This document shows, piece by piece, positions 2,937 to 61,608 of a stretch of 64,000 nucleotides of DNA (positions are counted from its first letter, which is position 1; every line of letters starts with the position of its first letter). The stretch covers positions 50,344,001 to 50,408,000 of the forward strand of contig OX597814.1 of assembly GCA_951406725.2 (NCBI GenBank), given 5' to 3'. The notes beneath the pieces were generated by a model that saw only the letters and a program-made list of their open reading frames with translations, did no database searches and was not told the origin of the DNA. This DNA is from Octopus vulgaris (taxonomy: Eukaryota). A program made the position numbers and the translations under genes.

Positions 2937-2938
<2 letters not shown>

Positions 2939-2939
2939 A

Positions 2940-3153
2940 CGGCAGCAAGTTGGCAGAATTGTGAGCATGCGGAACAAAATACTTAACGGCATTTCATCCG
3001 TCTTTATACTCCGAGTTCAAATTCCGCCGAGGTCGAATTTGCATTTTTTTTCGTTTCGGGATTGATAGATTAAGTACCAGAGAGACACTGGGATCGATTT
3101 AATCGATAAGTCCCTTCCTACCAAATTTCAGGTTTTGTACCTTTAGTAGAAAG
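2940..3153 (+). mobile_element. SINE family A copy
   Basis: GGCAGCAAGTTGGCAGAATTG...GAGTTCAAATTCCGCCGAGGTCGA...AAGTACCAG; aligns by eye to the 85-316 and 60793-61006 copies. Confidence 0.88.
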
Positions 3154-3174
3154 CTTTGTTATTATTATTGTTGC

Positions 3175-3211
<37 letters not shown>

Positions 3212-3235
3212 GCTGTTGTTGTTGTTATTGTTTAT

Positions 3236-3410
3236 GGCAGCGAGCTGGCAGAATCGCGAGTAGGCAGGACAAGATTGCTTAGCGGCATTTCATCTGTCTT
3301 CATTTTAAATTCTTCCGAAGTCAACTTTGCTGTTCATCCTTTCATGATCGATGTAGTTGACTTACCTTCTCCCACGAAACTGCCGACCTTGTGCCAAAAT
3401 TTGAAACCAT
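3236..3410 (+). mobile_element. SINE family A copy, internally deleted
   Basis: GGCAGCGAGCTGGCAGAATCG...GCTTAGCGGCATTTC...TTCATCCTTTC. Confidence 0.8.
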
Positions 3411-6944: not shown

Positions 6945-8145
6945 CAGGGGTTGGACAAAATAATGAAAATACCTTAAAATTTCAAACAAATTAATTTTAA
7001 TATGGGGTAGGGCCGCCTTTGGCAGTAATTACAGCTTGAATTCTACGAGGTATGTTTTCAAAGCAATTTTTGTCTATTCTTCAGCTAAAATAGTCTCTAG
7101 TTCTTGTAGTGATGAGGGTGGAATATATTGACTCCTTACTTGTTTTTCTATAATGCACCATAAATGTTCAATAATATCGAGATCTAGGGACTGTGGTGGC
7201 CAGATAAGATGTTCAACTTCACTATAATGTTCCTCGTGCCATTCAATAACAGCTTTAGCTGTGTGAATTGGTGCATTATCATCCTGAAAGATTGCGTTTC
7301 CTTCCGGAAACAGTTCAGAAATCATAGGATGAATTTGATCAGATAAAATACTTAGTCTTGACTATTAATTATGCCATGAAGAGAAACCATTGAGCCGGCG
7401 GATTCCTACGATATAGCCCCACAGATCATCACAGATCCTCCTTCATGTTCAACAGTTGGAAGAAGGCAGTCTGGATCAAATGCTTCTTTTGGCTGTCTCC
7501 GATGGTCGGAAATAAGGTAAAGGATAGCTTGTCCGAGAAAATAACATTCTTCCAATGCTCTAGGGACCAATTCTGTAAGTTTTTACGCCACTCTAAACAC
7601 ATTGCAACGTTTGTTTTTGAAAGTAGTGCTTTTCTCTGATTGCACGCCTTCCGTAAAATTCGGCTTTGTGCAGCTCCCGGTGAAAAATTTTTGTAGAAAC
7701 TGGATTTTCGAGGTGGCCATTAAGCTTTGCAGTAATTTGGGGAGCTGTACTTTTGTGATTCTTTCTAACAATTCTAACAATCTATATCTGAAAGGTTTGG
7801 TTTTCTTCCTGAGTTTTTGTTTCGACGAGGTTTTCCCTCTTTCTCAAAGTTTGTCATTACTTTCGAGACAGTACTCCATGATACACCGAACATTTCGGGT
7901 GTCTTCGTTACACTAGTACCTGTCATACGAGCACCAACAATTTGACCCCTTTAGAAGTCCGACAGATCTGTCATTTTAATGAATTTGAATTACCTTTTTT
8001 CTGAAACAGCAATTTTAGCAAAACATATTAAGCAACACTAATAATAAATCAAAAAACTTTAAAATAATCAAGCTTTTGACGGTCTTATAGATATTTCAAA
8101 AATATGATGCTATAATGCTATATTTTTCCATTATTTTTCCAAACC

Positions 8146-10896: not shown

Positions 10897-11426
10897 CCGT
10901 CGTTGTTGTTGTCGTGGTCGTCGTCATTAACTCGTGTCCGAGTATCAAATCTACAGTGGTGAGTGGGCCTCTTCATTTTGATGGGTGTGGAGGGTGCTGG
11001 TAGCTGAGGCCAAGGGCGGTATAGAAAAGCCGGGGGCTTTTATCGCAGGGGAAGGTTGATGGGGGACGAGGAAGTGCGAATCGTTCTTTGCGTCTTCGAC
11101 GTCTCATCTCTGCCTCTTGACGTCTGTTATTTTCTATCATGTCTGTTCCCTCGACAATGACATACCGCCACTTTGAACGGTCGTTAGCGACTGACTCCCA
11201 GATATGGAGCAGCGGAGGAGACTGGCCTTGAGCTGGTCTCCGAAACGGAATTTGGAAGCTCCGCGTGATCTGGTGCCAGAGGCCAATTCCGCAAAGAAGA
11301 GTTGACGGGAGGATACGCGATAGAGGCATATGCATGATGTATCTCAACCAGCAGAGGCGGTGTCGTGCCATAGTAGCATTAATGCTGGACAATCCGACCC
11401 GGAGCAGAACCTCTTCGTTGGTAATT
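10897..11426 (-). mobile_element. RTE-clade LINE 3' fragment
   Basis: ORF 10973-11392 SINATMARHRLCWL..HM...WESVANDRSKWR...C-terminal zinc-finger-like remnant; tail of GAC/CAA triplets. Confidence 0.8.
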
Positions 11427-12138: not shown

Positions 12139-12543
12139 TCGCCGATAAGGCTCCTTTCCAAAATGCGCCAGAGAAAATTTGTTTGCTTGTTATCAGTCGT
12201 AAGACACTTGTTGTTTTCACCGTTAATGCTTCTGTATTTCATGTTTCTGTATTCCATTATTGTTTTTTGCCTTTTATATTCGTCCTTTTTGCTGTCCCGG
12301 TGTTCGTATGCATTCGATCCTTCTTCCAGGAAATCTACGCTCCCAGCTTAGTTTTTCTAATGCTCGTTGCTTAGTTTTTCTTGGAAGGCTGGCCGGATCT
12401 AGTAATCTCAAGATTAATCAGCCGAAATTACTACGATGATCCGGTTCTTGACTGAAGACTGAGGGTTTCGAATGTCCTGTCCGTGTTTATTGTATCGTCT
12501 TCTAAGAGTTATACGTTCTTGTCTATGTTGTATTTTTCTACAT
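12139..12543 (+). mobile_element. ~405-bp non-coding repeat (family H1) carrying a rearranged hammerhead motif
   Basis: Collinear similarity to 36576-36985 (minus) and 40897-41068. CT-rich 5' flank; 3' end ...TACAT runs into (TA)n. Confidence 0.8.
12391..12462 (+). ncRNA. Putative non-circularly permuted hammerhead ribozyme (H1 copy 1)
   Basis: P0 CCGGATC 12393-99/GATCCGG 12438-44; stem III TAGTAAT 12400-06/ATTACTA 12427-33; cleavage site C12407 (AUC); stem I TCAAGA 12408-13/TCTTGA 12446-51; CTGAAGA 12452-58; stem II CTGA 12459-62/TCAG 12418-21; GAAA 12424-27. Confidence 0.75.
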
Positions 12544-12545
12544 AC

Positions 12546-12590
<45 letters not shown>

Positions 12591-12594
<4 letters not shown>

Positions 12595-13461
12595 GTCTGA
12601 TCAATAAGTATTCGGACTGTTGCCATCGCAACGAAGCTGAAGAACACAGAGTGAAGCCCCTTGGCACATATTGACCTTGAACTCTGCTGTGCATGCACAC
12701 TAAGTTTTACTGTTCTAGCTTACTTCCGTTGTTTACAGTAATCCTTGGGAGGAAGGTGAGTAGCGAGCGTGTGATCGTCACATTAACAATTACAGAAAAA
12801 GTTAAGCAGAGAATCTGCATCAGATTTTGCTAAAAACTTGGTGATACCTGCTCAGGGGCCTACACAAAGTTTTCAAAATCTTTTCATCGATCTCGTCGCA
12901 GTCAAAGAGATCATGTGTAACTGAAACCCGATTGTTCTTTTTGGTCAGCTAAAAGCAGTTTTGGCACAAACTTGGCAGACATGCGTCTCATACCCAAAAC
13001 TTCAGTGATAATGGACTGAACTGAACCGTAACTAATCTGCACATCCTCTGATAACTCACGGATAGTGATTCGACGACTTCTCCTCACAGCTGCATGCACA
13101 TCTGCGATATTTTTGTCAGTTCTGCTGGTTGTGGGTCTCCCAGAATGTTCGTCAATATCGATATTTTTTCGGCCATCTTGGAAATGTCTGAACCACTCGT
13201 ACATTTGTGTGCGACTCATTCACTTACTGCAATTTTGCGTAGGACTCTGGGTAGGTATCGCCATGACAGCTTTCTCTGCTATGATCAATGCAACGATCAC
13301 ACGCTACACATTGCTATAACCAATGAAAGTGAGTTTGAACGTTAAAAGCTTGTGCGCATGCACAGCAGAGTACAAGGTCAATCTTAACCGAGCGGCTTTA
13401 CTCTGCATGCTTTTAGCTTCGTTACTATGGCAACAGTCCGGATGCTAATTGATCAGATCTC

Positions 13462-22300: not shown

Positions 22301-22920
22301 AATCTACTAAAACCACCGAGGGAATGTGAAGAATTTGTTAACGACTGATAAAATGTTTTCATTATAACGTTAATTAACACTGCTGTCATATAAACGGCAT
22401 TTAAAGACTAGATTATATATAAAATTTATAGTGTAACTTAACATAAAATTGCATTCCTTATAATTCAGACACAAATATCTTACAGTAGTTTTATAATTGT
22501 AACAATGTTATGTAAAAGTACAACTCAAAAGATAATACATTGCATAGAAATATTTTTTTTTTTTATTTGGCTACAATTATCTCGAGTTACAGAAAAAGGA
22601 AAGTATGACTATTTAAAAAGTTATACGTCAAAAAGGCCGTTCATTTTTCGTACGAGTATATGTTGCTATAGCAAAAGCAAGATATTGCTCTGACAAAAGC
22701 AAGACATCGAAACTGGAAAGTGAACTTAGCATGACAGGAACTTTCCTGCCTGAATATTGATTTCTATTATAGGCACAAAACTCGAAGTTTTTTGGAATGG
22801 GATGCAGCAGGCTTTTGATTTTCAGTTCCTAACTGCTTATTTTTTATCTTTATTTTTTTTATTTTATGTCATCGACCACGGAAGAGCTAAAAGAAAAGTA
22901 GAGCTATATATGTATATTCC

Positions 22921-23117
22921 TTTCTACTTTAGGCACAAGGCCTGAAATTTTGGAGGCGTGTGGTAAGGCTAGTCGATTACATCAATCCAGTATTTAACTG
23001 GCCCTTATTTCATCTACTCCGGAAGGATGACGGGTAAAGTTGAACTCAGAACGTAAAGTCAGACAAAATACCGCTTAGCTTTTTGCTCAGCGTGCTAACA
23101 ATTATGCCAGCTCGACT
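22921..23117 (-). mobile_element. SINE family A copy
   Basis: Plus strand TTGAACTCAGAACGTAAAG...ATACCGCTTAGC...CGTGCTAAC...GCCAGCTCG. Confidence 0.85.
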
Positions 23118-23344
23118 TATATATGTATATTAATACTTACTTTAGTAACAAGGTTCCCTAGTTTACAGCGGGCGGTCATGCTGTAATGTTTATGTCGTGA
23201 GTAAAATTATTTCGACTAGGACTTGAAATTGGATTCAAGAAAAAGTCTATTTATTTATTTAGTTAATTTTATATCGCAAGGGGGAAACAACATCGACATT
23301 GGATACAGGTATCCAACAGGCCAATCACTGCCTCATTACATATA

Positions 23345-24255: not shown

Positions 24256-25800
24256 AATGCTGGGAGAAGAGACAGCAGACCTGTGGAATAGAGGCAAGAA
24301 CGTGTTTATTATTGATTTAATGCCAATCAGACGAGTAGTACTACACTGTATGCAGTCCAGGATGTCTCTGTGCACCTCAGCAGTCTGAGCAGTACTTTAT
24401 TGTGGCTCTCACTTGAAGCAAATAGGCTGTGAGCAACTATTGGGAGACGAAATAGTTTCTGACTCTGAAGAGAAGGTCCGGCCTTTGGCATGTGGTCGTT
24501 GTAATGTTATGTTTGTGCCCTCACCAGGAGAGATCGTTGGTGTTAGTGGAACCCAAAGTTTGAGTTCAGAGATATAGCTGAGTAAGGCTCGTATCTGGGT
24601 GTTGCTATGATGGTGTATTTCTTCATTTGAGAAATACTTAAGTGTTTTACTGTTAAAAGAGCCAAGACAACCATAGAACTTCAAGAGGATACTCGCCGGT
24701 CATGAAATCTCTGCAGGTTTGGTGTGTGGTATCTTCGCTGCGTGTAGATGATACATGGTTGCAGAATTTAAAGGCAGAATGAAAGTTTGTATCATATGCA
24801 TAAGAGTGGGCAATGGTGGATAAGACGGCAAGTCATTGATGTACAGCAAGAAGAAAGTGGGTAACAAAGCCGAGCCCTGAAACACGCAGAGCTGATTAAG
24901 AATGGAATAAGAACTTGAACGCTGGATGAATCATATAGACAGGACGTCTTGATTGAAGATTCGCATGCCAGACACAGTTGAAGGCTTTTACGATGTCTTG
25001 TTCAACATTGCTTTCACAGATTTTTTTCCAAACCGAAAGCCCACTAATGAGTGGCATAAAAGAGATTTCCAGTAGATCTGGCTCTGTGGAAGTCATACTA
25101 GTGGTTAATGAGGAGAAAATGAGCTTCAAAGCGTAGGAAAGCATCGTTATTAATGTCTGTGTTCATTACCTTAGAGATGTCAGAAGTCAGGACGATATAT
25201 GGCTGGGACAGAGGAATTGACATCTTTTGAAATAAGACACACTGAAGCGTACCTCCAAAATGACAAGTTATATCTCAACTGAGAATGAGAGATTAGAGTT
25301 TGGGGAATGTTGTCGCGCATTGTGATGTGCAATGTTTGAGTGTAATTAAAATGACGTTGTCAATGCATGTGGCCTTGTTGGTTTGAAGCAACAAGAGATA
25401 TTTCCTTACTAGGTATTTCTGAATGCGAGGTGAAGTGGCTTGTGTATTAGATTTGGAGGAGACTAGGTATGTATAGTATTCTATACTACATACCCAGTCT
25501 CCTCCAAATCTAATACACAAGCCTCTCCACCTCGCATTTAGAAACGTCTTGTACGGAAATACCTCTAGAACATCGAGAAGGATTTGCAGGCAGGGGTTCA
25601 GAAATTTGTCTCAGAGAAAAATAGGATGTATGGTTTGTGTGTGAGTAAAAGGCGATGAAGATATTTGAGAAGAGGAAGGCGAATTGGCCAAGGGATTTGA
25701 AGTGATGTGTTAAGAGTACGCGAAAATCCCTAAGGTGGATGTCTGGTCTGAATGCTTGCAACGTAGTGAACTTCGCTAAGACATTCAATTACCTTTAGCG
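24202..25800 (-). mobile_element. Degraded CR1/Jockey-group LINE with (TAC)n tail
   Basis: RT remnants DIVKAFNCVWH (ORF 24896-25144) and FQGSALLPTFFLLYINDLP (ORF 24700-24885); (GTA)n at 24202-24254 marks the 3' end. 5' boundary approximate. Confidence 0.8.
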
Positions 25801-34930: not shown

Positions 34931-35326
34931 CATAATGTAAAGGAATATATATGCATAAGTTTAGGCTATTCTTAGGGCATATGGTACTGAAAAATATAAA
35001 TGAAACTGAAACTGTTTTCCGTTGAAAGTTCTTTTGTTGCTTTTTTTTTTATATCGTACCTTGGAGAATATGTAAATAATATCCGATGTGATGTTATACC
35101 GAAGTCTCGAATGCTCATCACTCATTTCAGTTTTTTCTATTTTTAGTCAGATATGTCTTCATTATGTCTTGACTTCAATATTGAGTATAAAGTAATATAA
35201 AGCAATATAAACATGAATTGACTGTTGACCGCGTGTAGTTCAACTAACTAAATGATATTGCAGGTCATGTGCACTACCACTGCTTCTTATTGAAGACATG
35301 TTTCTTTTTGGCATGATGATATTTAA

Positions 35327-35740
35327 GGCAGTGAGCTGGCAGAAACGTTAGCACGCCGGGCGAAATGATTAGCGGTATTTCGTCTGTCTTTACGTTCTTA
35401 GTTCAAATTCCGCCGGTGTCGATTTTGCCTTTCATCCTTTCGGCGTCGATGAAATAAGTACCAGTTACGTACTGGGGTCGATACAATCGACTTAATTCGT
35501 TTGTCTGTCCTTGTTTGTCCTCTCTCTGTTTAGCCCCTTGTGGGTAGTAAAGAAATAGGTGTTTCGTCTGTCTTTACGTTCTGAGTTTGAATTCCGCCGA
35601 TGTCGACTTTGCCTTTCATTCTATCAGGGTCGATGAAATAAGTACCAATCACGCACTGGGGTCGATATAATCGACTTAATCCGTTTGTCTGTCCTTGTTT
35701 CTCCCCTCTGTGTGTAGCTCCTTGTGGGCAGTAAAGAAAT
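35327..35740 (+). mobile_element. SINE family A partial tandem dimer
   Basis: Full unit 35327-35560, then a second unit lacking the first ~45 bp (TTTCGTCTGTCTTTACG...GTAAAGAAAT). Confidence 0.92.
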
Positions 35741-36264: not shown

Positions 36265-36465
36265 GAGAAAAGGAAGATGTCCTGGCTGTTTGAAGACTAC
36301 GGGAATATTTACAAGACATTTGTTTTAATTCTTTCTTCAATCTAATTGTTTTTCTTCTTAATATCTACCTTTGTTTACCCTTACTGAAAAAGTCGAAAAT
36401 CTATTTCATGCTAAAATTATTTTAGCATTTTCTACCTTGTCTTATTTTCCTTAGATATACATACT

Positions 36466-36536
<71 letters not shown>

Positions 36537-36575
36537 GTACATGTATATGTATATGTATATGTATAGTATATGTAT

Positions 36576-36985
36576 ATGTAAAAAAATACAAACTGGGACA
36601 AGAACGCAAAGCATTTAGAAGACAATACAAAAAACACGGACGGGACATTCGAAGCCTTCAATCTTCAGTCAAGAACCGGATCATCCTCGCAATTTCGGCT
36701 GATTACTCTTGAGATTGCTCCGACCTGGCCAGCCCCAAAGGAAAATCTAAGCCAAGCGCATTAGATTCCTTGGAAGAAAGCCTCGAATGTATACAAAACA
36801 AGGACGGGAACGAATAAGAATACAAAAATACGTAAAAATAATAATGATAACCTGAATAAGAATACGAAAATACGTAAAAACAATAATGATAATAATAATA
36901 ACAAAAACAGGACGTCACAGACAAGCGTCTTTTCGACAGGACGGGTGAACTTGAGCTGGCGCATTAGAAAAATGTCTTGAGGCGA
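36576..36985 (-). mobile_element. Family H1 non-coding repeat, copy 2
   Basis: Shares AATGCGCCAG, AAGAC.CTTGT, CATTCGA, TTCTTCCA...AATCTA, GCTTAG.TTTTC, the ribozyme block and the TTCGAATGTCC.GTCCGTGTTT...TACAT end with 12139-12543. Confidence 0.82.
36658..36730 (-). ncRNA. Putative non-circularly permuted hammerhead ribozyme (H1 copy 2)
   Basis: Minus strand: CCAGGTC-GGA-GCAAT-C-TCAAGA-GTAA-TCAG-CC-GAAA-TTGC-GAGGAT-GATCCGG-T-TCTTGA-CTGAAGA-TTGA. Confidence 0.72.
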
Positions 36986-37312
36986 AGAGAGAAAAAAATG
37001 TGTCCAAAGTTAGTCACGTGTGAGGAGAAGAGAGAGGAAAAGAGGGACAGAGGAAGAGAAAAAAAGGGGAACAAGGAACAAAGGAGGAGGAGAAGAGAGA
37101 GAGAGTGAGAGAGAGAGAGAGAGAGAGAAAGAGACAGATCAAAGTGGAGTGCAAAGTGTGAAAGGCAGAGAAATGTAGGAGAGGGGGAGAGAGGGACAGT
37201 GTTATAGAGTCGTACCAAGTTTATACATATATACGTATATATATATACATATATATATATATACATATATATATAAATATATACATATATATATGTATGT
37301 ATGTATATATAT

Positions 37313-37371
<59 letters not shown>

Positions 37372-37386
37372 AATATATATATAGGG

Positions 37387-37461
37387 CTAGTTCGACGAGT
37401 CGTGTTCTGTCCTCACCTTCGAAACACGCTGGAGTTGAACTAGGGACAGCTGATGAGGGGG
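37387..37461 (+). ncRNA. Putative non-circularly permuted hammerhead ribozyme (second family, H2)
   Basis: P0 CTAGTTCGAC 37387-96/GTTGAACTAG 37434-43; stem III CGTGT 37401-05/ACACG 37424-28; site T37406 (GUU); stem I CTGTCC 37407-12/GGACAG 37444-49; CTGATGA 37450-56; stem II GGGGG 37457-61/CCTTC 37416-20; GAAA 37421-24. Confidence 0.75.
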
Positions 37462-37848
37462 ATTTTTCCTTGTGTAGTTTGTCCAGTACTCTGTTTTTTT
37501 TTTCTTTGTAAAAATAAGGTTCGTTCCATGCTTATTTTTACGTTTTCGTTCTCGTTGAGTTCTGCGTCTATTTGTGATGTCCTGTACTCACGTATATATA
37601 TTTATATATGCATGTATATATACATGTAGATGTAGGTACGTACATATATGTATGTATGTATGCATATATTTTATTTATTACACTATTGTATGACTGAGCG
37701 CCTTCGCGTCGATTCGATTTGACTCGTTCCGTTTCGTTTCGTTTCTTCTTCTTCTTCTCCCAGTACAGTTTATATATATATATATATATATATACGTTTA
37801 AATATTTGTTGTGCAAGATTTTTTATGTGAAGTCGTGTCTTGAAACAG

Positions 37849-38154
37849 ATATTGTTATATTTCGGAATGGTCAATTTGCCAGTTTAGCCAATAAAAACAC
37901 ACGCACTATATATTTGGTGTTACTTTGCTTCAGTGTTATTTATTTTTTACATTAATCTAGTAAGGAGAGACACAAATAACTGAGAAGAAAACAAAGGACC
38001 ACTGATGCGGTCACAGGAGTGTGACGAAAGAACTCTGGCCGAAATAAGATTAAGATTAATGTAAAAAATAAATAACACTGAAGCAAAGTAACACCAAATA
38101 TATAGTGCGTGTGTTTTTATTAGCTAAACTGGCAAAATGACCATTCTGAAATAT

Positions 38155-38162
<8 letters not shown>
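37849..38162. mobile_element. Fold-back element with 110-bp inverted arms and a hammerhead-like spacer (PLE inverted-pLTR-like)
   Basis: Arms 37849-37958 and 38053-38162 are nearly identical. Spacer contains GGACCA-CTGATGCG-GTCACA GGAG TGTGAC-GAAA-GAAC-TC-TGGCC (37996-38040). Confidence 0.8.
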
Positions 38163-41860: not shown

Positions 41861-42166
41861 GTGTGTGTGTGTGTGTGTGTTTGTGTGTGCTCCTGTATGT
41901 CTCTCAACATATAGACAACGCAGCATATAGACAACTTTAGAAAAAGAATTTCACTTTAACGATAGGTCGTCGTCGTCGTTGTTGCTGATGTTGTTGTTGT
42001 TGATGCTGCTATTGCTCAAGAGTATTCAAACTGTTATTAATCTTCACTGAGAAAGTAAATCTAAACATTATTTGAACAATTTATAAAGGCACGTGCATGA
42101 TTAACATATACATTTACTGGTATTATAGCGACAGATAATGACCTAGTATTAATTCTTATCAATTAA

Positions 42167-42376
42167 TTCTTTCTACTATAAGCACAGGGCCTAAAATTTG
42201 GCGGGCAGTGGTTAGTCAATTGCATCGACCTTAATGCCCAGATGGTATTTATTTTATCGAACACGAAAAAATGTAAAACAAGATTTTCCTGCTTCGGCGG
42301 AATTTGAACTCAGATCATAAAACCGGAAAAATACCGCTAAGCGTTTTGGCCGACGTGCTAACGATTCTGCCAGTTC
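42167..42376 (-). mobile_element. SINE family A copy
   Basis: Plus strand TCGGCGGAATTTGAACTCAG...ATACCGCTAAGC...GTGCTAACGATTCTGCCAG. Confidence 0.85.
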
Positions 42377-45300
42377 AAAACAGAAATGTGACGGACACAG
42401 TGAAACCCTGAAGTAAATGTTTTACATTATTTTATAAACACTTCTACAGTTATAAAGATAGAAGTATAGTAACATAGAGGAAACATTTAACGCTTTGAGT
42501 AATACTTTTCATTGGTAAGATTTTATGAATGTAGACTGCTACTCAAAAAATTAGTCTGCTGTTCATCTTCACAGTAAACCAACAAACTCTAATTTTGAAC
42601 TGTTCATACTCATTATTCGATGACACAATCTTTGTTTTTCTCAGAATCTATTGTTTGCCTTACAGTAGGCAGTTTGTACCCTTGATCTTAAATCCTATTT
42701 AGTAACAACGTCGGTAATCATTACTCCGTGATCGATAAACAACCCCCAATCGACTTTGCTGCTTCTTCATAAACTTTTGGTATCTGGTGAAGTTCAAAAA
42801 AATATTATCAAATAATATAAGTTATTTAGTGCAGAATGGTTAATGCGTCTAATAATTTTTGATTTGATAATATGCGTTCAAAGAACAAAAATAAATAAAG
42901 ATACGAGGAAATAAAAATAGTTCCTGGAGACTCTATGAGCGTCTACGAGGATATATAACTTTATGAAATGACCAGTAATGACTATATTTAAATGAGTGGG
43001 CATATTTTTTCTCGACATAGGAATTGATCAGCAGTTCTTTCGAACACATATAAGAAGTATGTTATTTCATATTTTAAGCCATGGTTGACTTAATAATATA
43101 TCAGCTTTTCTGTATCTATAGTAACAGCTTAGGGGCGGAATTCATCATTCGAATGGCCTTCGATAAGATATGGCATGTAAATTCCTTTGTGAGATGCTTT
43201 CTTATGGAATCCATTCAATTGATTCTTATTAGCTGGCTGGTTTTCTAGCTATTTCACTCTATTAGTTGAATTCCATCTAAAAACAAAAATGAAGGTACAT
43301 ACAGAATTTCTGCAATTTTTATTTTTTCCAGTAATACACTTTTATCAAAATGGAGTAATCCAAATTTTAGATGAAGTTGGGATACTACAGATATGCCATC
43401 AACATTACTGGGATAAAATATATTCTACAAAAGACTGTATTTTTCCTCTTAGAAGAGTTTTCCTTGTTTTTCATATTGTGTCTACTTCCCCACACTAAGC
43501 CCTATGACTAATCTTTCTTTCTAGAGTGTCAGGTATCTGAAGTTCCTTTTTAGACAAAATAATCTTTTCCTGCAGTTATCGGCTAACAAATCAACCTCAG
43601 AAGCTGTCTCGAATGATTTGAGAAGGTGATATTTCTAAACCATTTTTTCGAGCCAAATCATTAAAAAGGAAAGAATACACTGCTACCAACTTCCTCGTGT
43701 TGAATTTAGCATTAAATGTTCATTCGTTTTTAGTTCTTCCCTTAATTCCTCAAACACTTTTCAGGGTCTTGGGGACATCATAAGTAATCTATTTAAAACC
43801 ACTGCCAAAATGAAGTCGTGTGGGTCCTGTTATTTTATTTCTTTTTCGCTTATTTTATGAAACTTTTAATTATTTGCTTCTGTAGATTTTTGAATTTGCT
43901 TTCACAATTCCAGTACAGTAAATAGGGAGCCTTCTCCTCACATGATAAAGTAATGCATGATACCAATCAACCAACGTTCTGAATAGTATGCAAATACATT
44001 CTTCACAAGAAGAACTTTATTGCAAGACGCCCAACAGCCAGACCTTCAAACTTAGTTGAGCACTGAAAACCAAAATGTGAAAGAGCAAGAAGCTTTATAA
44101 AAATATGAACATGCAATTAGTGTGTGTACGGTCTTTTGCAAGATCGGTGACTTTGATAAACTTATTGACAAGATATATTTACATTAATGACAATATTGAC
44201 TCGATTTCTGCACGTATTCCAGGCTAAGAAATTCGTGTTACTACAAGCATTGATGACTGGTTAAGTTTACGCAATGCATTAAATTTATGAAAACTTTCTC
44301 CAATACAGGTGATAATACTTACTTTATTCTAGAGAACTCATTTATCTTCATGAAGATCGAATGTTTTGTGGTGGTTCCATGTTCAGTATTTCCATCTAAC
44401 AAAGCAGCCTCTGCATGTTCGCTTCAGATACAAGAATAGCTGCCAACTTTCCCTCAAATTAAAATCTAGCGTCTTATATAAAAAACAGTTGATAATATTT
44501 TCCTTGATATCCAAATAAACGGAATGGTCATGGTTGGAACTCCTTTTGTCATAAATTTTCTTGACCAAGATTGGCTTGATATTGATCACCAACACGTAGA
44601 AAATGGAACTTAAATCTGAAGTTTGCTTTTGCTTTATTCTTCGTTGATAATAAACAACAGAATAAAAAAGGAAACCACGTTTCTTGAGGGAATTTCTTTT
44701 CTTATTAGATGAAGAAGCAACTTCTGGGAAAGATCGTGAAACGAAGGCATCCATCATGATATCTTAATAGTTTGAATGCATGAATTTGTAAGTGGCATGA
44801 GGGTATGCTATATTCAGAATTGACTGCTTTGGTTATTTCTCTGTTCTACAAATACAAATATACTTATTTTTCAAGCTTAAGATCTCTCCACTCATTTGAA
44901 ATTCTTTTTAAATACCCTGAGAAAATGGAACTTAAATCCACAAATTTGGTGTTTGCTAACGAAAATATTTTGTCTTTTGTCGTGTAAGTTCGAATTTAAT
45001 GAACTTTAATGTTTCCAACTAAGCAATAACATCGCTTTATATTAACTAAATATTTTTCTTAAAAGTGAAAGCTGTCAAAAATGAATGCCTGAGAGCACTT
45101 TTCATTGTCAGAGATTAATCGATCTTTCCTTAGGTATGTGAGCGATATACAAAGAGATATCATGTTTACTAGTAACATTTCATCCCCCTCTCCTCTATCT
45201 CCCCTCCTCCCCTCTCTCTCCCTCTTTCTCTCTCCGACGATGATGACGACGACGACGAAGGGCTCTGCCCACAATTGTAAACTCTTCCTCACAGCATTAC

Positions 45301-47481: not shown

Positions 47482-48771
47482 TTAAGTTGTTCCGAAAACA
47501 ATGGCCGCTCGAAGTGTTGTTTTGAAACGCAATTTTATCATAGTATTTTAATTATATTTTAAGTGAATTTCGACATACTTAATAATTGATGTATGCTCCT
47601 TAATAATTTTCTACTTTTTTTCTACTTATTTCAAACAGAAAACATTCTCGGAGCATAGATGTCCTTAATTATGAACATGACAAAAAAGGACCTTCGCTTA
47701 CTTTTCTTGCAATAGTTCAAGATTGGGCACAGTGCCTCCCAAACAGCTGCCAATATCAGCAGAGCATGAGGAGAGGGGTCCACAAGTGATCACACAGTAC
47801 GAAGGTGGTTTCAGAAATTCCGTAGTGTTGATTAGAGCCTTGAAGATGAAGAAGGGAGAGGATGGTCATGCAGTCTTGACAATGAACAATCGAAAGCAAT
47901 TGTTGAACAAAACCCACATCAAATTCTCAGAGAAATGTTTCAGGCATTTGGTGACGGTATTGCAATGGTCTCACACAATCTGCAGAAGATTGGTAAGGTG
48001 AAAAAGCATGATAAATGGGTAATGCATGAGCTCAAGGAAAATCAAAAAGTTCAGCATTTTGAAGTGTGCTCGATGCTCTTTCTGTGAAACAACAATGATC
48101 CTTTTCTTGACCGAATAGTCACTTGTGACAACAAGTGGATCCTTTATGATAATCGTAAACGGTCAGGTCAATGGTTTAATCATGATGAGTCCCCCAAACA
48201 TTTCCGAAAGCTGAAGTTTCATCAGCAAAAGACTATGGTGACTATCTGGTGGTCTGCAATTGGTATTGTCCATAACAGCTTTCTGGGAGCTAATCAGAAC
48301 ATTACAGCAGAGGTTTACTGCAATGATCTCGCTGAAATGCATGCTCACTTTAAAAAAATGACCTGCATTGGTGAATCGGCGTGGCCTAATTCTACTCCAC
48401 GATAATGCAAAGCCACATGTTGCAAGAATGACGCTACAGAAACTCATTGACTTAAGATACGAGACTTTACCACAGCCACCGTATTCTTCTGATCTTTCAC
48501 CCAATGACTACCATTTTGAGCATTTAAACACGTTTTTAAGTGATAAACCTTTCAGGTTCAAACCATGAGTGGAATCAGCTTTCAAAGATTTCTTGGCATC
48601 AAAGCCAATATGTTTTTATCAACGATGCATAAATAATCTCGTTGATCGATGGCAGGGATGCATAGATGTTCACGACTCATACTTTGACTAATCAAAACAT
48701 TTCTATTGTTAATTTTTTTTCAGAATAACATTATGTTTCTGAAATCGGCCATTATGTTCGGAACAGCCTAA
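47482..48771 (+). mobile_element. Full-length (~1.29 kb) mariner element with a pseudogenised DD34D transposase
   Basis: TIRs TTAAGTTGTTCCGAAAACAATGGCCG (left) and, on the minus strand, TTAGGCTGTTCCGAACATAATGGCCG (right), with TA TSD. Motifs WVMHEL, IVTCDNKWILYDNRKR, LLHDNAKPH, QPPYSSDLSPNDYHF. Confidence 0.95.
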
Positions 48772-50179: not shown

Positions 50180-50960
50180 AGTGGGAAACATCTGCAACAC
50201 GAGTCTGATCTCTATCACAGCTTCATCGACTTCAAAAAGGCATTTGACCGTATTTGGAACGATGGGTTGTGACAGGTGGCGAAGAATTACGACTTCGATA
50301 ACAATCACTTCGAAGTAAGCCAAGCAGTGCAGTCCTCCTGAATAACATCGGAGAATTTTTCAGGACAACAGCAGGTATTCGACAAGGATGTTTTCTCTCT
50401 CCAGTGCTTTTCAACATCTTCCCGCGGAACACCATACAGGAGACACTTAAACTTCACCTTTCTGTTTCCATTAGAGGACAGCCTATTTCCAACCTGCGTT
50501 TTGTTGATGATATTAACCTGTTAGGAAGCAGTAAAGAAAAACTACAGGAGCTCACTTCCAGTCTGGAAAAATATCAGCCCAGAAAAGAACAAAATAATGG
50601 TTAAGAGTAACAACAAAAAAAAATCAACCGACATCATGTCAAATGGATAGACTTGAAGTGGTCACCTCCGAGTACCTAGGAGTCACTTTGACCAAGAATA
50701 GCAGATATCAAAGGGAGATAATGACAAAACTCAGCTTAGCCTCTGCTCCCATGACAAAGCTGAACAACATATGCGGATGCAATTTCATTAGTCTTCCCAC
50801 AAGATTAATTATAAAAGACTCTAGTCACTTCGACACTTCTGTATGGATGTAAAAACTGGATTCTTAGAGCTAACATGGAGCGGAGAATCCAGACATAACC
50901 TTCAGAAGGTTATTACACATCTGCACAAAGCACAAAACGAACAGCTTTATCAGGTAGTAA
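50180..50960 (+). mobile_element. RTE-clade LINE reverse transcriptase fragment
   Basis: FIDFKKAFDR, GIRQGCFLSPVLFNIF, ISNLRFVDDINLL, EYLGVTL, spread across frameshifts. Confidence 0.88.
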
Positions 50961-53052: not shown

Positions 53053-53880
<828 letters not shown>

Positions 53881-54130
53881 ATATAAGAAATATGTTACAA
53901 AAAGAAAATAGAAACTACACGTGGTAATGTAAGGGGAAAGTAAGAAAACGAAAATGCACATTGTAAATAAAAAAAAGTAAAGGCTTTTTATGAAGAGTAA
54001 CGTCAGATATATACAATTAGATGAACTGAGGTAGGAATAAAAGTAATGAAAGTCATGATTGTGAGATTATTAAAGAGATTCAAGTATAGCGGCGGTTTCG
54101 TAAGTTTCTATTCATTGCTTTGAATGAACG

Positions 54131-54169
<39 letters not shown>

Positions 54170-54314
54170 GTAATGGTGTCAAAAAGACCCTAAGGTGTCA
54201 GGTAATACTGAGTAAGTGCTATGGACAGATTATAGTTAAGCTCCATGTTCGGTAATTCTGCGAATGAGGAGTCCAACTTAGGTCGAATATCAGCATGCGT
54301 TTATATAAAAAAGG

Positions 54315-54698
54315 ATTTAATAGAATGAGATAAAAATCCAAGGCTGTGAAAGATTTCAGAACATTTATAAATAGGTCTCACAGCTGTTTCCGGGATATTT
54401 TATATATCCCTTCATCGGAGACGGTGTGAGATAATGGATAAGCAATAGTTATTCTAGATAAGATTTGAAATTGAGAGTGAAGTGGAGGAAAGAAAATAGA
54501 CGTAAGATATGCAGGGTATTGTATTTGCAATTCCATTATTTAGGCAGAATGGTCTTGTCTAGACTAATTATTGCTTATCCATTTTTCACACTGTCTACGA
54601 TGAAGGGATATATAAAATATCCCGGAAACAATTGTAAGACCTATTTATAAATGTTCTGAAATCTTTCAGCCTTGGATTTTTATCTCATTCTGTTAAAT
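54315..54698. mobile_element. Fold-back element with ~147-bp inverted arms, each carrying a variant minimal hammerhead
   Basis: Arms 54315-54463 and 54553-54698. Plus motif 54593-54640: GTCT-ACGATGAA-GGGATAT ATAAA ATATCCC-G-GAAA-CAATTG-TA-AGAC. Minus motif 54375-54422: GTCT-CCGATGAA-...-GAAA-CAGCTG-TG-AGAC. Confidence 0.82.
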
Positions 54699-54709
54699 TT
54701 ATATATATA

Positions 54710-56451: not shown

Positions 56452-58560
56452 TTGTTGTTGGCATCCTTTTTGTCTCGGGAGACAATGGAGTTGCGCATAA
56501 AATAATCTAGTCCGGCTTTTACATTTCATGTCCTAATACATCTCCTGCTGTGGCTGTGTAGTCCTATCCTGGACGAACTCTCCCTCTGGTAGGTGCCGCA
56601 AATGTAGCGAAGACTTTGCCTGGCTGGTTGTAATGTCATAGTTTCTTGTTGACGTCTTTTCTTGTCTTTCCATTCTCCTCTCTCTCTATGTCACTTCTTT
56701 GTATTCCCTCTTTTACGGTACGTCGCCAATCTGCACTGTTGCTGGCAACTGCTTCCCAGTTGGTAATATTGATGTTGCAGGCATTCATGTCCCTTTTGCA
56801 AACGTCCTTGTATCGTAAGAACGGTCTTCCCACAGACCTAGTGCCCCTATCAAGCTCTCCGTTGAGTATGTCCTTGAGGATTCTGCCATCTTCCATACAG
56901 CTAATATGTCCAAGCCATCTCATACGTCTTTGTGTGAGGAGTGCAAACATGCTTGGTATTCCTGCTTGCTTGAGGACATCTTCGTTGGGGACATGATTCT
57001 GCCATTTGATGCGAAGGATTTTCCGGAGACAGCGCAGGTGAAATATATTTAGGCGACGTATGGCGTCGTATTGCGTGTGTATGGCGTCCAAGTCTCACTT
57101 CCATACAGTTGAGTGCTAAGTACACATGCCTGGTAAATCTTCATTTTCGTGGTCTTGGTCAGCTTATTGTTGTCCCATGCCCGTTTGGAGAGTTGGGCCA
57201 TCACAACAGCTGCCTTGCCAATGCGTATATTAAGCTCAGCATCACGGGATAGATTGTGTTGACGGTAGAGCCAAGATAGGTAAACTTCTCCACCTCCTGT
57301 AGCCTGTGGTCTCCAATATGTATGTTTGGGATGTCCGATGTAGCCTGACCCATGGTGTTGGTCTTCTTGAGGCTGATAACTAAGCCAAAGTTGCCACATG
57401 TTTGCTCAAAACAGTTGATGAGCCTTTGTAGGGCTTCTTCTATGTGTGATACCAGAGCGGCATCATCTACAAATAGCATCTCCTTGATCAGGACGCTTCT
57501 GATTTTGGTTTTGGCACGCAGACGTGAGAGATTGAACAGTTTCCCATCACTTCTACTGTGCAGAAACAATCCATCATCTGATGTCTCAAAGGCATGTGAC
57601 AGCAGCAGCGAGACGAAGATGACAAATAATGTACTAGCAAGGACACAACCTTGCTTTATCCCGATTTTTATTTGGAAGCCGGCTGATGTTGAACCATAGT
57701 GCTGTATGGTGCCTTGCATATCATCATGGAAAGATTTGATGATCCTCAGCAGCTTTGGTGGACATCCGATTTTTTTGGAGCAGGATGAAGAGGCCTTTTC
57801 TACTTACCAAGTCAAAGGCCTTGAATTCAAAGGCCGATCAATGAAGGCCATATATAATGGCATTTTCTGCTCTCTGGACTTCTCCTGAAGTTGGCGTATG
57901 GAGAATATCATGTCAATAGTTGATCTGCTTCTTCTAAAGTCACACTGCGATTCTTGATAAATTCGAGAAGCAAGCAGTTGTAGCCTGGACAGGATAATGT
58001 GAGCAGAGGCCTTTCCAACAGTGCTTTGAAGAGATATTCCAATGGTAATTGTTACAATCACCACGGTCACCTCTGTTTTTGTAAAGCGTAATTATGTTAA
58101 CATCCCGCATATCCTGAGGTACTGTATCCTCTTCCCAGCACTGACACAGAAGCTCATGAATGTGCCGAAGCAGGATGGTGTTTTTGCCGGTTTTGATGAT
58201 CTCTAAGGGGATGTCGTCTTTTCCCGGAGCCTTGTTACTTGCTAGAGAGTCAATAGCCTTGGTGAGCTCTGCTATAGATGGCAGACTGTCAAGTTCACAC
58301 ATGACTGGCAAGCTCTTGACACCCTCCATTGCAGCCTCAGCTACCGTGAACCCCGTGAGTACAGATCCTGGTAGTACTCCACCCATCTATCCATTTGCTT
58401 GCTTTTGTCCTTGATGAGATCTCCAGTAGTTGATTTCAGAGGGGCTGACTTGGTTGCGGATGGACCGAGGGCCTTCTTCAAACCGACATACATCCCACGG
58501 GTGTCGCCACTGTCAGCAGCTGACTGGATACTCTGACAGATTTCCTGCCGAAAATTCCAA
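56452..58560 (-). mobile_element. RTE-clade LINE, ~2.1 kb, 5'-truncated, frameshifted RT
   Basis: KAPGKDDIP, QESQCDFR..RSTIDMIFSIRQLQEK, GIKQGCVLASTLF, MLFVDDAAL, FTYLGS, LYGSETW, RRMRWLGH; (CAA)n 3' tail. Confidence 0.95.
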
Positions 58561-60192
58561 AATAAGACTTGAAGTGAGACCATTGGTTCCGATTGAATAT
58601 ATTATTGATACTCTTCTTTCAGTTGATTTTATATTCGATTGAGAATCATGTCATCATTTTATTAATCTTCTACTTCCATAAGTCCTATAGATAATTTATA
58701 AATGCCTTTATCTCCTGTATTTATTCTGTAATTGACAATTATTCAGGCTTCACTGAGTTTCTCATATACCAAAGATCTAGGTTTTTTGCCATTCAACCAC
58801 AGAAAAAACTCAAATAATAACCATAATCGAATAATAAATTCAACATGAAAACGATCCGTTATACATAATTAAGAGGTTAAGCAGAATTTTTCGCGAAATC
58901 AGCGGGATACAATATTCTCTTTGAGGCTGATTTATTATTTTTTCTTTATAGTAAATTATGAATGTACTATACCTTTCATTTTTGTTTAATCTATTAAGTT
59001 TTAAAGTAGTATAAATATATTTGGCACAATGTTGTAGTCTTTACAATCTAGTCGAATTGTTAGAGCTCTAACATATATTTTAATGTACAGTTACACTCCG
59101 ACAGTAGGCACCATATTTAAACTATTTTGACTTGTCAAACTAGGTAATATTCTATTACAACACAATATGGTTCACTTTCAATGATAACAGCAAGAAACAA
59201 ATAATTAAAATAAATAACACTCAAATATCTTTTACGAGTATTATTTATTAAATTAGTTTATTCGCAAGCCATATTTTGTAAATATTGTGGATGCGGCTAT
59301 TAATTAAATTTAAAATATTAATTAAATTTGCATTTTAGATTGAGATATTTTGTAAAGTCAGCTTTCATATAAGAGGTTGATATAACAATTTTCTATTGTT
59401 CATTAATATGGGAATCATGTAAATTATACTTACAAACTCTATGCATATTTATCTTACAGAAAATAATTAGTAAATAATAAAGGAAATGCATCTGCATGAT
59501 CTCTGCTAATTTCAGTTATGCTGCATTCATCTTCAGCAAACGTCATGAAATCTAATAATTCATATACTTCTATTTTTTTAAGAATTTCTTTTATCTACTT
59601 CAACATATTGTTCCAGTAGTTGTTGTAATATAACCTTAGGTCAGTTCTGATTGAGTATAACTTTAATCTATGACATTCTAGCCGTAAAAATTCCGTCTTT
59701 TTTAGAACTATTTAGTAATACATTTTATAATGTATACTTTATCCTTATTGAGTTGGTAGGCTGAGATTTGAAGGATATTTGGCTTCTATTTCAAGCAGTT
59801 CACATCGTAGTTCCCTTGTTGGTTCATCATTGTTTAAGTAAATGGATTTAGTGTAGGTCCTCTCAGTAATAAACAATTCCTTAAGAGCAGTGATGCACTA
59901 TAGTCAAGGATAGGCCTACTATCATCTATTAACTCGTGTATTATTAATATTGGCCGGCGGTAAAACATATAGCTGAATTGCTAGAGGACTAATGTATATT
60001 TTAATATACAGTTATTCTCCAACGGCAGATGCCGGAGTGAAAGTATTTTGACTCAACAAAATACGTAACATTCTGCTACAATACAATATGGGACATTTGC
60101 AAAGATAGTAAAAAGAGAAAATTAATTATAATAAATAACATTCAAATACCTTTTACAAATAATAACTCCCTGATCTATATATTAAGTGTGAG

Positions 60193-60540
60193 CAAAGCGC
60201 TTCAAGGACACACTGAATGCCTTACTGGAAGCCTTCAACATCGACCATGACACTTGGGAACAGTCTGCTCTAGACAGAGAAGGGTGCCGATCAGCTGTCC
60301 ACAAGGGTGCCAACTCATGCGAGACCAATATGATCGCTACTGCAGAAGACCGCAGACAAGCCAGGAAGAACAGAGCTAACAACTCTGTAACAGGCGCTAC
60401 CATTCCCTGTCCACACTGCCAAAGACTCTTTCGGGCGAAAATTGGCCTCACTAGCCATCTGCGGATTCACAAAACAAGCCCCCCCCCCCGGATGACTAGA
60501 TGGTTTTCGTCCCATCGACGAACAAACCACGACGAACAAA
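60193..60540 (+). mobile_element. RTE-clade LINE 3' fragment
   Basis: KRFKDTL...WEQSALDR...CPHCQRLFRAKIGLTSHLRIH C2H2 terminus. Confidence 0.88.
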
Positions 60541-60792
60541 GCACGCTAATATTAGATATCTATCCCTTGCAGTGGAAATTTTCGTACTGTGACTTGTTTA
60601 CAGGTCATACCACATTTGTTTGCATAAAATGGAAACTATCCTTGAGAAATTATTGGTTCATTTTTACTCACTAACCAACTGTTCACGGCTACAGTAGCTG
60701 CGAGTACTTCAGGCATACAAAGTTTTAATTAAATGCTCAGAATTTTAAGCAAGTGGAATACATATTCGTAGTATTGCTCAGGTTCAATCCAA

Positions 60793-61006
60793 GGTCGGCG
60801 AGCTGGCAGAAACGTTAGCACACCGGGCGTAATGCTTAGCGGTTTTTCGTCTGTTTTTACGTTCTGAGTTCAAATTCCGCCGAGGTCGACTGTGCTTTTC
60901 ATCCTCTCGAGGTCGATAAATTAAGTACCAGTTACGTACTATGGTCGATCTAATCGACTAGCTCCCTTCCCAAAATGTTGGGCCTTGTACCTAGAGTAGA
61001 AAAGAT
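60793..61006 (+). mobile_element. SINE family A copy
   Basis: GGCGAGCTGGCAGAAACGTTAGC...GAGTTCAAATTCCGCCGAGGTCGAC...AAGTACCAG...GTACCTAGAGTAGAAA. Confidence 0.92.
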
Positions 61007-61608
61007 TACTCAGGTTCACTCGTTACCTTATCTCACTTTAATAGCTACACCCTACTTCGAAGCAACACTATTATAATAGCCGGATCTATAAGGGAACAAA
61101 GGGGCAATTGATCCAGGCCTTCCATATGTCGGGGGCTCGCTGCTTCCCAGAAAGCTTGCATGAAGAAGGCCTTCCGCTATCTACTTAAAAATCCATGAAA
61201 AAGATACCACATTTCTCCACTTTATCGACATCAGAAAAGATACTCAACCCTACGATAACTACTAGCCAGTTCTCTAGAAGAAGTTTTAAATATCTTGGGA
61301 ATAAAATGAGTGGATGGATTTAGAAAAGAATAGTAACAAAAACAAACTTATCACTACCATCTACGAAGAAATTGATGGATATAATTCCATTCAGAATTCT
61401 TAACACTCCCCATAGCCCCACCGGCTCACTTATATATATATATATATACATATATACAAATATATGCGTGTGTATGCGCGCGTGCGCGTGTAGTGAACCT
61501 TTAATCCATATACATTTTTCTCTCTCCTTTTTTTTCCTCTTAATCCATTTTTCCCGAGCGCGCTAAACTAATACACCTGTTTGTTCCTTCATCTGTCATC
61601 GCATTTTG

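Follow-up and report, generated by a model that had tools for sequence, protein, structure and literature searches.

A candidate split hammerhead ribozyme at the (TA)n end of a dispersed octopus repeat, with a probable relation to Naiad retroelements

The H1 repeat of Octopus vulgaris is a large dispersed family, and the hammerhead-type motif located near its end is real, far beyond chance. In regard to its nature, the explanation that we consider likely from the sequence is that H1 represents the 3′ end, truncated on its 5′ side, of a (TA)n-inserting retroelement, of Naiad type or mobilised by Naiads, with a cutting hammerhead of type CSG permuted at A9/G10.1. The split layout itself appears highly probable, and both cleavage, which is predicted by the analysis, and a Naiad-type parent are quite likely. 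We also lean, by a small measure, towards a wider reading, in which H1 would hold a seventh natural hammerhead layout, opened between A9 and G10.1 and able to cleave, derived from type CSG by tandem duplication and possibly acting only between two copies; together with type CSG it would constitute an overlooked ribozyme of Naiads, ranging from ctenophores to molluscs and arthropods and present here in tens of thousands of copies.

According to Eckert, Friedrich, Weinberg and Weinberg (2023, PMC10085705), in the part of the article available to us, six hammerhead layouts can be counted when block C (stem I, CUGAnGA and stem II) is assumed to be uninterruptible, and no known organism's genome yielded either type SGC or type CSG. 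The block C of type CSG is closed by a helix that forms between the bases preceding stem I and those following stem II (PMC10085705). Naiads are described in the accessible portion of another study as retroelements that target (TA)n and lack canonical hammerheads, although some of them carry core words whose other half is located 35-50 nt to one side or the other (PMC8557442). These motifs were annotated only as 'HHR_core' or 'HHR_half_core', with no fold given there (Craig, Yushenova, Rodriguez and Arkhipova 2021, PMC8557442).

H1 copies and their surroundings

The window, by which we mean the whole 64-kb stretch of DNA that was analysed, is microsatellite-rich, with 30-42% GC, and contains LINE and DDE-transposase remnants, which marks it as DNA of animal type; its repeats may resemble those of octopod genomes. 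It holds two H1 copies, copy 1 at 12356-12544 (+) and copy 2 at 36575-36765 (read on the - strand), which share 83% identity over about 186-193 alignment columns. Both stop at (TA)n, approximately 80-90 nt past the CUGAAGA box, and a further motif, H2, likewise ends at (TA)n. The two are single copies, 24 kb apart on opposite strands, and the window holds no tandem H1 copy and no pLTR or inverted arrangement. Contig depth on the copy 2 element reaches about 36873, and reads appear clipped past that point. The features outside the copy 2 ribozyme are as follows.

36460..36579, no strand: (TA)n-type microsatellite at the 3′ end of the H1 element, the presumed target site (from sequence; copy 1 and H2 end likewise)
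36580..36657, minus: 3′ tail of the H1 element, about 80 nt, with a U-rich end at a (TA)n/(TATG)n run (from sequence and alignment)
36735..36870, minus: upstream part of the H1 element, U-rich and non-coding, with an uncertain 5′ boundary (from alignment with copy 1 and contig depth)
12387..12458, plus: copy 1 ribozyme motif (G10.1 at 12387, C17 at 12407, G12 at 12424, C3 at 12452), in an element copy that ends at (TA)n near 12550
37383..37461, plus: H2, a second motif unrelated to H1 in sequence, with the same S-G-C order and P0 placement (H17 at 37406, G12 at 37421, C3 at 37450)

Pfam searches with 148 of the 201 window ORFs returned only RVT_1 and DDE/transposase pieces, none of them near the H1 copies, and no GIY-YIG domain. 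Among the same 148 of 201 there was no Naiad-type ORF (N-terminal GIY-YIG, CxC linker, C-terminal RT); the H1 copies are short 3′ ends.

Several other repeats were observed in the window. A SINE-like dispersed family of about 200-240 nt, with one pair in tandem, occurs at 82-317, 2937-3352, 22915-23124, 35325-35740, 42164-42377 and 60790-61008. Broken LINE remnants lie at 56639-60671 (-/+), 53265-54066 (-), 50302-50601 (+) and 10976-11425 (-), and we take their subtypes, from the look of the peptides, to be RTE and CR1. The RVT_1 matches are located at 57204-58091 and 50302-50601. DDE transposase remnants are present at 7077-7361 (-) and 48088-48402 (+), an element flanked by inverted repeats occupies 12596-13457, right after the (TA)n of copy 1, and long palindromic (MITE-like) stretches were found at 54302-54709, 37849-38162 and 25394-25566. 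Copy 1 itself contains a short tandem duplication of about 20 nt at 12330-12367 (+), missing from copy 2. At 12370-12392 (+), upstream of its stem II strand, a 6-nt stretch can pair with the stem I 5′ strand, two bases away; it resembles a block C devoid of its core, is not kept in copy 2, and could be a relic of duplication or a product of chance.

Organization of the motif

In copy 2 the following parts were recognised, listed in the direction of the element, all on the minus strand.

36730..36734, minus: probable stem II 5′ strand, GGCUG (G10.1 = 36734), upstream of the other ribozyme parts and outside the interval of the preliminary description of this DNA
36722..36729, minus: 5′ strand of P0, the helix by which stems I and II are connected at their outer ends
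36714..36718, minus: stem III 5′ strand (U16.1 = 36714), including the C of the compensated pair (36717)
36713, minus: C17 of the AUC triplet, with cleavage predicted 3′ of it by analogy with hammerheads
36707..36712, minus: stem I 5′ strand, with 6 Watson-Crick pairs identical in both copies
36697..36701, minus: probable stem II 3′ strand, CAGCC (C11.1 = 36697)
36693..36696, minus: core box G12-A13-A14-A15.1, from sequence
36689..36693, minus: stem III 3′ strand, including the G of the compensated pair (36690)
36675..36682, minus: P0 3′ strand
36669..36674, minus: stem I 3′ strand
36662..36668, minus: core box CUGAAGA (C3-A9)
36658..36661, minus: YUGA, the stem II 5′ strand of the preliminary description, a weak competing 4-bp pairing and probably not the catalytic stem II

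The features of the hammerhead class, namely CUGAnGA, GAAA and an NUH at the junction of stems I-III, are present in both copies, in which CUGAAGA, GAAA, AUC and the 6-bp stem I are identical. P0 has 8 pairs in copy 1 and 7 in copy 2, while stem III has 7 bp in copy 1, the two distal pairs being broken in copy 2 (U-A to G.A and A-U to A.G). The blocks follow the order II′-S-G-C, which is not the circular order of types I, II and III (the Rfam hammerhead families), these being three-way junctions with a core free of pseudoknots. In Rfam searches, no match in the window reached the gathering score; with E values up to 10, the region 36400-37700 gave 53 matches, mostly miRNA models on (TA)n runs, and no hammerhead family. 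To our knowledge, the Rfam hammerhead models include only circular permutations. Minimum-energy folding did not give the active fold, as performed with a pseudoknot-free method incapable of showing pseudoknots.

H2, present as a single copy in the window, has a GUU site, a stem I of 6-7 bp, a stem III of 5 bp and a P0 of 10 bp, in an element that reaches to about 37593 with (TA)n on both sides. Its stem II may be formed in two ways: either by a G run after A9, as in type SGC, with 5 pairs including 2 G.U, which by eye fits the published SGC descriptor as far as it was available, or by a 4-of-5 upstream match that is cut at the (TA)n junction.

Conservation, covariation and chance

A descriptor that combines stems I and III with both core boxes in the S-G-C order (site, GAAA, CUGAnGA) matched three times in the window (copy 1, copy 2 and H2), compared to 2 matches in 300 dinucleotide shuffles. 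The same layout also recurs in unrelated families, as described below, so a chance complementarity in a decayed repeat is hardly tenable, even though the covariation between the two copies is not significant and no Rfam hammerhead family matches.

The preliminary description had proposed a permuted fold under selection, reporting that the cores, stem I and the AUC site are invariant between the copies, that the linkers differ, and that there is compensatory change in paired positions. Of this proposal, the non-circular permutation of a hammerhead-type motif within an amplified repeat holds, as do stems I and III and P0, whereas the stem II is probably wrong. The reported changes are genuine: the U-A to C-G double change in stem III alters both sides (36717/36690), the A-U to G-U change in P0 is still paired (36724/36680), one P0 pair is broken (G-C to A-C at 36726/36678), the C-G to U-G change assigned to stem II is found at 36661/36699, and the site is C17 = 36713, as given. 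Two further broken pairs in stem III had gone unmentioned, and among the changed pairs of P0, stem III and the earlier stem II, 3 of 6 are kept and 3 of 6 broken. The linkers do differ, but the linker G of copy 2 at 36706 is almost private, about 100% of the family depth having another base.

The caution that two copies are not enough proved well founded. Under simulated random mutation at 13-22%, the probability of at least one double Watson-Crick compensation among 25 pairs is 0.14-0.41, and with respect to whether substitutions fall at random relative to the pairs, the two-copy covariation was reached by 238 of 500 shuffles. The copies differ at 14/67 and 14/82 flanking sites and at 9/72 ribozyme sites. 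The core, stem I and upstream stem II differ at 0/35 sites, against a flank divergence of 17-21% (binomial P 0.0002-0.008, for sites chosen post hoc), while the 13 core sites alone give P 0.04-0.16. Selection on the H1 structure is thus supported by comparison of sequences, not through the covariation of two copies but because none of these 35 key sites differs and helices are kept with changed sequence across Naiad families.

Which stem II

In the fold of the preliminary description, YUGA right after A9 pairs with UCAG in a type-SGC-like arrangement, with two C's looped out before GAAA. Four such pairs are possible in both copies, one of them with the C-G to U-G change, and the family changes at 36661 and 36658 still pair as wobbles; a similar offset pairing, shifted by two after A9, is also possible in the accessible consensus of Naiad_Plae. 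On the other hand, this helix is separated from GAAA by CC and has a pyrimidine at 10.1, hence no G10.1 and no G10.1-C11.1 pair; it falls outside the published SGC descriptors, as far as these were available, and reaches only -0.4 kcal/mol in copy 2 and -2.0 in copy 1. Three of the four bases in the YUGA strand vary across the family (36661 in 11-23%, 36659 from G to A opposite C in 7-26%, and 36658 in 3-12%), and no change at 36701 compensating that at 36659 is found among the variant rows listed, which are unphased. By eye, no comparable pairing is present in the available Obim, Ovul, 4_Dst, Amil, Bfor and 2_Movir consensi of Naiads.

The alternative strand, GGCUG(G) at 36734-36729, lies directly before P0 and pairs with (U)CAGCC up to GAAA in both copies, forming a helix of 5-6 bp that directly adjoins GAAA and amounts to -8.3 kcal/mol in copy 2. 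Its five pairs between 36734-36730 and 36701-36697 are Watson-Crick and the same in both copies, and G36729 can give a sixth (G.U). Only if this upstream strand is used is there a G10.1-C11.1 pair closing stem II beside GAAA: a pairing beside GAAA that starts 0 or 1 nt after A9 has 0 pairs at either offset in both copies, and after CUGAAGA of copy 2 (36662..36668, minus) nothing is able to pair with C11.1 at those distances. By chance alone, a perfect complement of 5 nt would occur at one of three offsets with a probability of about 0.001. GGCUG is unchanged between the copies, while the bases just upstream of it differ. In sequencing run X9, for which the listing of C>T, C>A and A>G changes is complete, no transition of at least 3% was seen at G36734, G36733, U36731 and G36730, where depth is about one fifth of the peak, and likewise none at core G5, G8, G12, U4 and U16.1. 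A divergent subfamily, seen as loose ends, retains the upstream strand, and one X9 contig has kept CAGCC and lost the U needed by the YUGA/UCAG helix alone.

We infer from these pairings that the YUGA/UCAG stem II is probably wrong and that GGCUG/CAGCC is probably the catalytic helix formed in RNA; the earlier fold as a whole is very unlikely. The C-G to U-G change probably lies outside the catalytic helix, as the stem II to which it was assigned is weak, lacks G10.1 and is variable among family members. With the upstream stem II, A9 and G10.1 would therefore be unlinked and located at opposite ends of the motif.

Two other candidates were rejected. A third register of stem II (GGYU, five bases past A9) is weaker than the upstream helix and needs a 5-nt insert, and a vestigial type I motif 3′ of the core has GAAU instead of GAAA, no stem I partner, and a GUC that varies in 11-16%.

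Variation across sequencing runs

The stretch or part of it is contained in 20 of the 24 sequencing runs listed, from 12 studies and under five organism labels. Four runs were aligned at 80% likeness, with shares weighted by depth, unphased and taken from the variant rows listed. At this likeness, the matching contigs numbered 1178 in X9, 6517 in X3 and 3893 in X4. Summed depth peaks over 36664-36705, at about 3.3 million in X3 compared to 44-84 for the long pieces listed, which suggests that the repeat occurs in tens of thousands of copies, the depth sum itself not being a copy number.

Within the family, the G of copy 2 at 36724, responsible for its G-U pair in P0, is the minority letter, 94-96% of depth having A. 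A change of C36722 to U (52-65% of depth) keeps its P0 pair, G36725 to U (4-14%) breaks one, and G36688 to U (9-33%) restores a sixth pair in stem III. The compensated pair 36717/36690 is absent among the variant rows listed; a copy-1-like stem III is present in X9 as a loose end, so such copies are clipped and not counted. The loose ends also include a subfamily with a changed stem I 5′ strand, and stem I is therefore not invariant family-wide.

In the raw DNA run X22, which bears the species label of the top holder, no read was found on the ribozyme; that label may cover more than one organism, or the reads may have been filtered. No RNA run is on record among those containing the stretch, X9 being RNA by guess only. 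Viral contigs gave 0 matches to the H1 pattern. From metagenomes, 7 pattern matches were rejected as chance, as none of them, examined by eye, has an S block or a stem I partner.

The layout in Naiad consensus sequences

The Naiad consensi (File S5, PMC8557442) were read by eye for a part of the 54 ends, with names assigned from the following header and the table order, and with words broken across lines being missed. In this partial survey, the split layout of H1 was found in 9 of the 54 consensi, from six lineages, with helix sequences that differ by lineage. As read by eye from the supplement, these nine are the following.

Naiad_Obim and Ovul (octopus): split layout, stem II GACACC/GGUGUC
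4_Dst (ostracod): split layout
Amil, Anas and Aacu (corals): split layout
2_Movir (box jellyfish): split layout, stem II GGGGAG/UUCCCC
Plae (acanthocephalan): split layout
Bfor (ctenophore): split layout

All of them were recognised by an upstream 6-bp stem II starting with G-C, followed by P0, III, NUH, I, II, GAAA, III, P0, I and CUGANGA, and in these accessible sequences nothing was seen by eye to pair beside GAAA after A9. Stems I and II of Aacu each contain one mismatch, the stem I of Bfor is only 2 bp long, and a further consensus, Esco, has stems I and III and P0 with no clear stem II (all by eye, in the part available). Complete motifs of type CSG were seen by eye at the ends of seven other consensi in the same supplement, Parc, 1_Nbra, 2_Nbra, 3_Nbra and Hpol, all five from nematodes, and two more that are probably Hcon and Asuum; in the literature available to us, type CSG had been published from only two metagenomic sequences. 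Several of the published core words would, judged by eye in the available part of the supplement, be complete ribozymes of the split layout or of type CSG. Neither layout was recognised by eye in the accessible ends of 2_Dst, 3_Dst, Omin, Adux, 3_Chem and the consensi before Ptep and Sdum. Two other ends in this material deserve mention: the consensus before Naiad-2_Movir ends, by eye, in a twister-like motif, and the one before Naiad_Smim has stems I and III and GAAA arranged as S-G-C; it contains a long insert, its first core box is decayed, and it may be what remains of a type SGC motif.

Three short words of the H1 motif had 0 matches in the available supplement, where a match split over two lines could have escaped. 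H1 shares with Naiad_Ovul and Obim a 7-nt word located at the 5′ strand of P0, and the distance from the motif to (TA)n is about 80-90 nt in H1 as well as in Naiad_Ovul, as far as these consensi could be seen. Both features, together with the layout, argue against a carrier unrelated to Naiads, such as a SINE, a retrozyme or a Penelope-like element of Neptune type that likewise targets (TA)n and has this ribozyme layout, as does the presence of type I motifs in the canonical Penelope-like clades covered by the sources at hand. Such a carrier would fit the missing ORF link, the lack of a sequence match to the Naiad consensi searched, and the size of the H1 family, as cephalopod Naiads are described as long inactive (PMC8557442, accessible part). 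According to the same portion of that study, (TA)n insertion is not exclusive to Naiads, and Naiad_Ovul and Esco are listed with 'no pLTR' (PMC8557442). Altogether, we regard a non-Naiad carrier as fairly unlikely.

Proposed mechanism

H1 would descend from a Penelope-like retroelement with (TA)n as its target, the Naiad clade being the most likely one, or from a non-autonomous element mobilised by such a retroelement. The proposed order of the motif is 5′-[stem II 5′ strand]-[P0]-[III, AUC, I]-[II, GAAA, III]-[P0]-[I, CUGAAGA]-3′. If type CSG is cut between A9 and G10.1 and its first part moved to the 3′ end, the order of H1 results, with P0 corresponding to the closing helix of CSG. The halves of block C would then lie at opposite ends of the motif and be held side by side by P0, acting as the stem I-II interaction helix, so that the usual core could assemble and cut after AUC. 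Ordinary hammerhead chemistry after C36713 is to be expected, because all conserved core bases and the G10.1-C11.1 pair are supplied. In regard to origin, a tandem CSG-CSG arrangement, such as may arise from pLTR duplication, could have lost its outer parts, the intact CSG motifs of the seven other Naiad consensi offering the parent layout. As has been hypothesised for other Penelope-like hammerheads (PMC8557442, in the part available), the ribozyme may serve to trim element transcripts that are long or in tandem. What the sequences show is the motif with its possible pairings, the size of the family, its pattern of conservation and the recurrence of the layout in published Naiad consensi; cleavage, the parent element, this origin and this role we infer.

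P0 and stem III would together make a single long hairpin, whose loop consists of the S and G blocks, and the fold may therefore close either within one molecule, after a U-turn, or between two copies. According to a crude reach estimate, with lengths taken by eye, folding within one molecule requires that 0-2 of the distal pairs in stem III open, so the outer pairs lost in copy 2 may be harmless. A variant of the favoured explanation, with the same layout and pairings, would confine cutting to multimeric RNA: the tails of one P0/III hairpin would dock on the loop of a second hairpin, in tandem pLTR transcripts. It agrees with the joining of P0 and III on both strands, one of the two connections being 0-1 nt long in copy 1, 4_Dst, Amil and Plae, for which the crude reach is too short in the sequences available, with the dimer action reported for metazoan Penelope-like hammerheads in the sources at hand, and with the genomic copies deriving from uncut RNA. 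However, the opening of 0-2 distal pairs is enough for one molecule, copy 2, H2, Ovul and Bfor (the latter two from the accessible consensi) have enough slack, and the window has no tandem copy. We consider a restriction to two copies possible, on the unlikely side.

Both H1 copies extend upstream of the predicted cut, and they are therefore derived from RNA uncut at that position. This is also what would be expected from a hammerhead-derived fold that no longer cuts and is kept at the 3′ end as a structural or protein-binding signal, recognised for instance by the reverse transcriptase; such a fold might alternate between the upstream and the downstream helix. Copies including sequence on both sides of the site and the missing backbone link between A9 and G10.1 are in line with such a fold; the A9/G10.1 backbone lies at a metal-binding corner. 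Against it, the catalytic bases, an in-register NUH and G10.1-C11.1 are kept across six lineages in the partial Naiad survey while helix sequences change, and rearranged hammerheads with the same features cleaved in vitro (PMC10085705, accessible part); we hold such a non-cutting fold to be decidedly unlikely. A split hammerhead that cuts remains the reading we prefer.

Comparison with known systems

Our literature search, which took in few subscription papers, found no description of the split layout, or of permuted hammerheads in Naiads or other animals, and the available parts of PMC13725137, PMC10162972 and PMC6962438 hold nothing further on the split layout. If the split layout is correct, the assumption behind the six layouts, that block C is uninterruptible, would be broken, and the backbone link between A9 and G10.1 would be dispensable in nature. 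Hammerheads with non-circular permutations would move from unnamed environmental RNAs into animal genomes, in high copy. The claim that Naiads lack hammerheads, from which it was argued that Penelope-like elements can do without the ribozyme, would be reversed (PMC8557442, in the part available), and a concrete route would exist for the evolution of permutations, which the accessible text of Eckert et al. leaves open (PMC10085705).

Types SGC and CSG, as far as their published descriptions were available, have in common with H1 the core boxes, the NUH, stems I-III, with a short linker leading from stem I to stem II, and two pseudoknots; their interaction helix, which connects stems I and II at the outer ends, occupies the same place in the layout as P0. 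P0 of H1 corresponds to this helix provided that stem II is formed with the upstream strand. The order of type SGC (S, G, then stem I with CUGAnGA) is found in H1, whereas its stem II, starting with G, 0-1 nt after A9 and beside GAAA according to the available descriptor, is not. Type CSG has an intact block C 5′ of S and G; in both H1 copies only the stem II half lies 5′, with no CUGAnGA upstream. With block C split, H1 is therefore not strictly SGC or CSG: unlike these types in the sources available, it has a block C divided at the A9/G10.1 step, and as a repeat it occurs in high copy number within an animal genome.

Likewise, the 'HHR_core' and 'HHR_half_core' words of Naiads share with H1 the position at the 3′ end, the (TA)n target and both core boxes (PMC8557442, accessible part). 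Insertion at (TA)n, characteristic of Naiads, is seen in both H1 copies and in H2. H1 is different from the Naiad consensi searched in belonging to another sequence family, with its ORF not in the window (PMC8557442, accessible part).

Further relatives are the type I or minimal pLTR hammerheads of canonical Penelope-like elements (Cervera and de la Pena 2014, PMC4209133) and those of non-LTR retrozymes (bioRxiv 10.64898/2026.07.22.740005), which in the parts of these works available resemble H1 in their location near the element end and in scattered truncated copies. They also share with it a loosened 9/10.1 step, a conserved G10.1-C11.1 and possible dimer action, as far as described there; an extra nucleotide at the 9/10.1 step is already tolerated in Penelope-like hammerheads and in the SGC descriptors, according to the same partial sources. 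Non-LTR retrozymes consist of tandem units with type I hammerheads, while the window holds no tandem H1 copy. The unit size of non-LTR retrozymes is 170-400 nt. Finally, the hammerheads of Penelope-like elements and retrozymes are, in the descriptions available, three-way junctions of type I with stem III short or absent, while H1 has a stem III of 5-7 bp, is pseudoknotted with a split core, and is non-tandem here.
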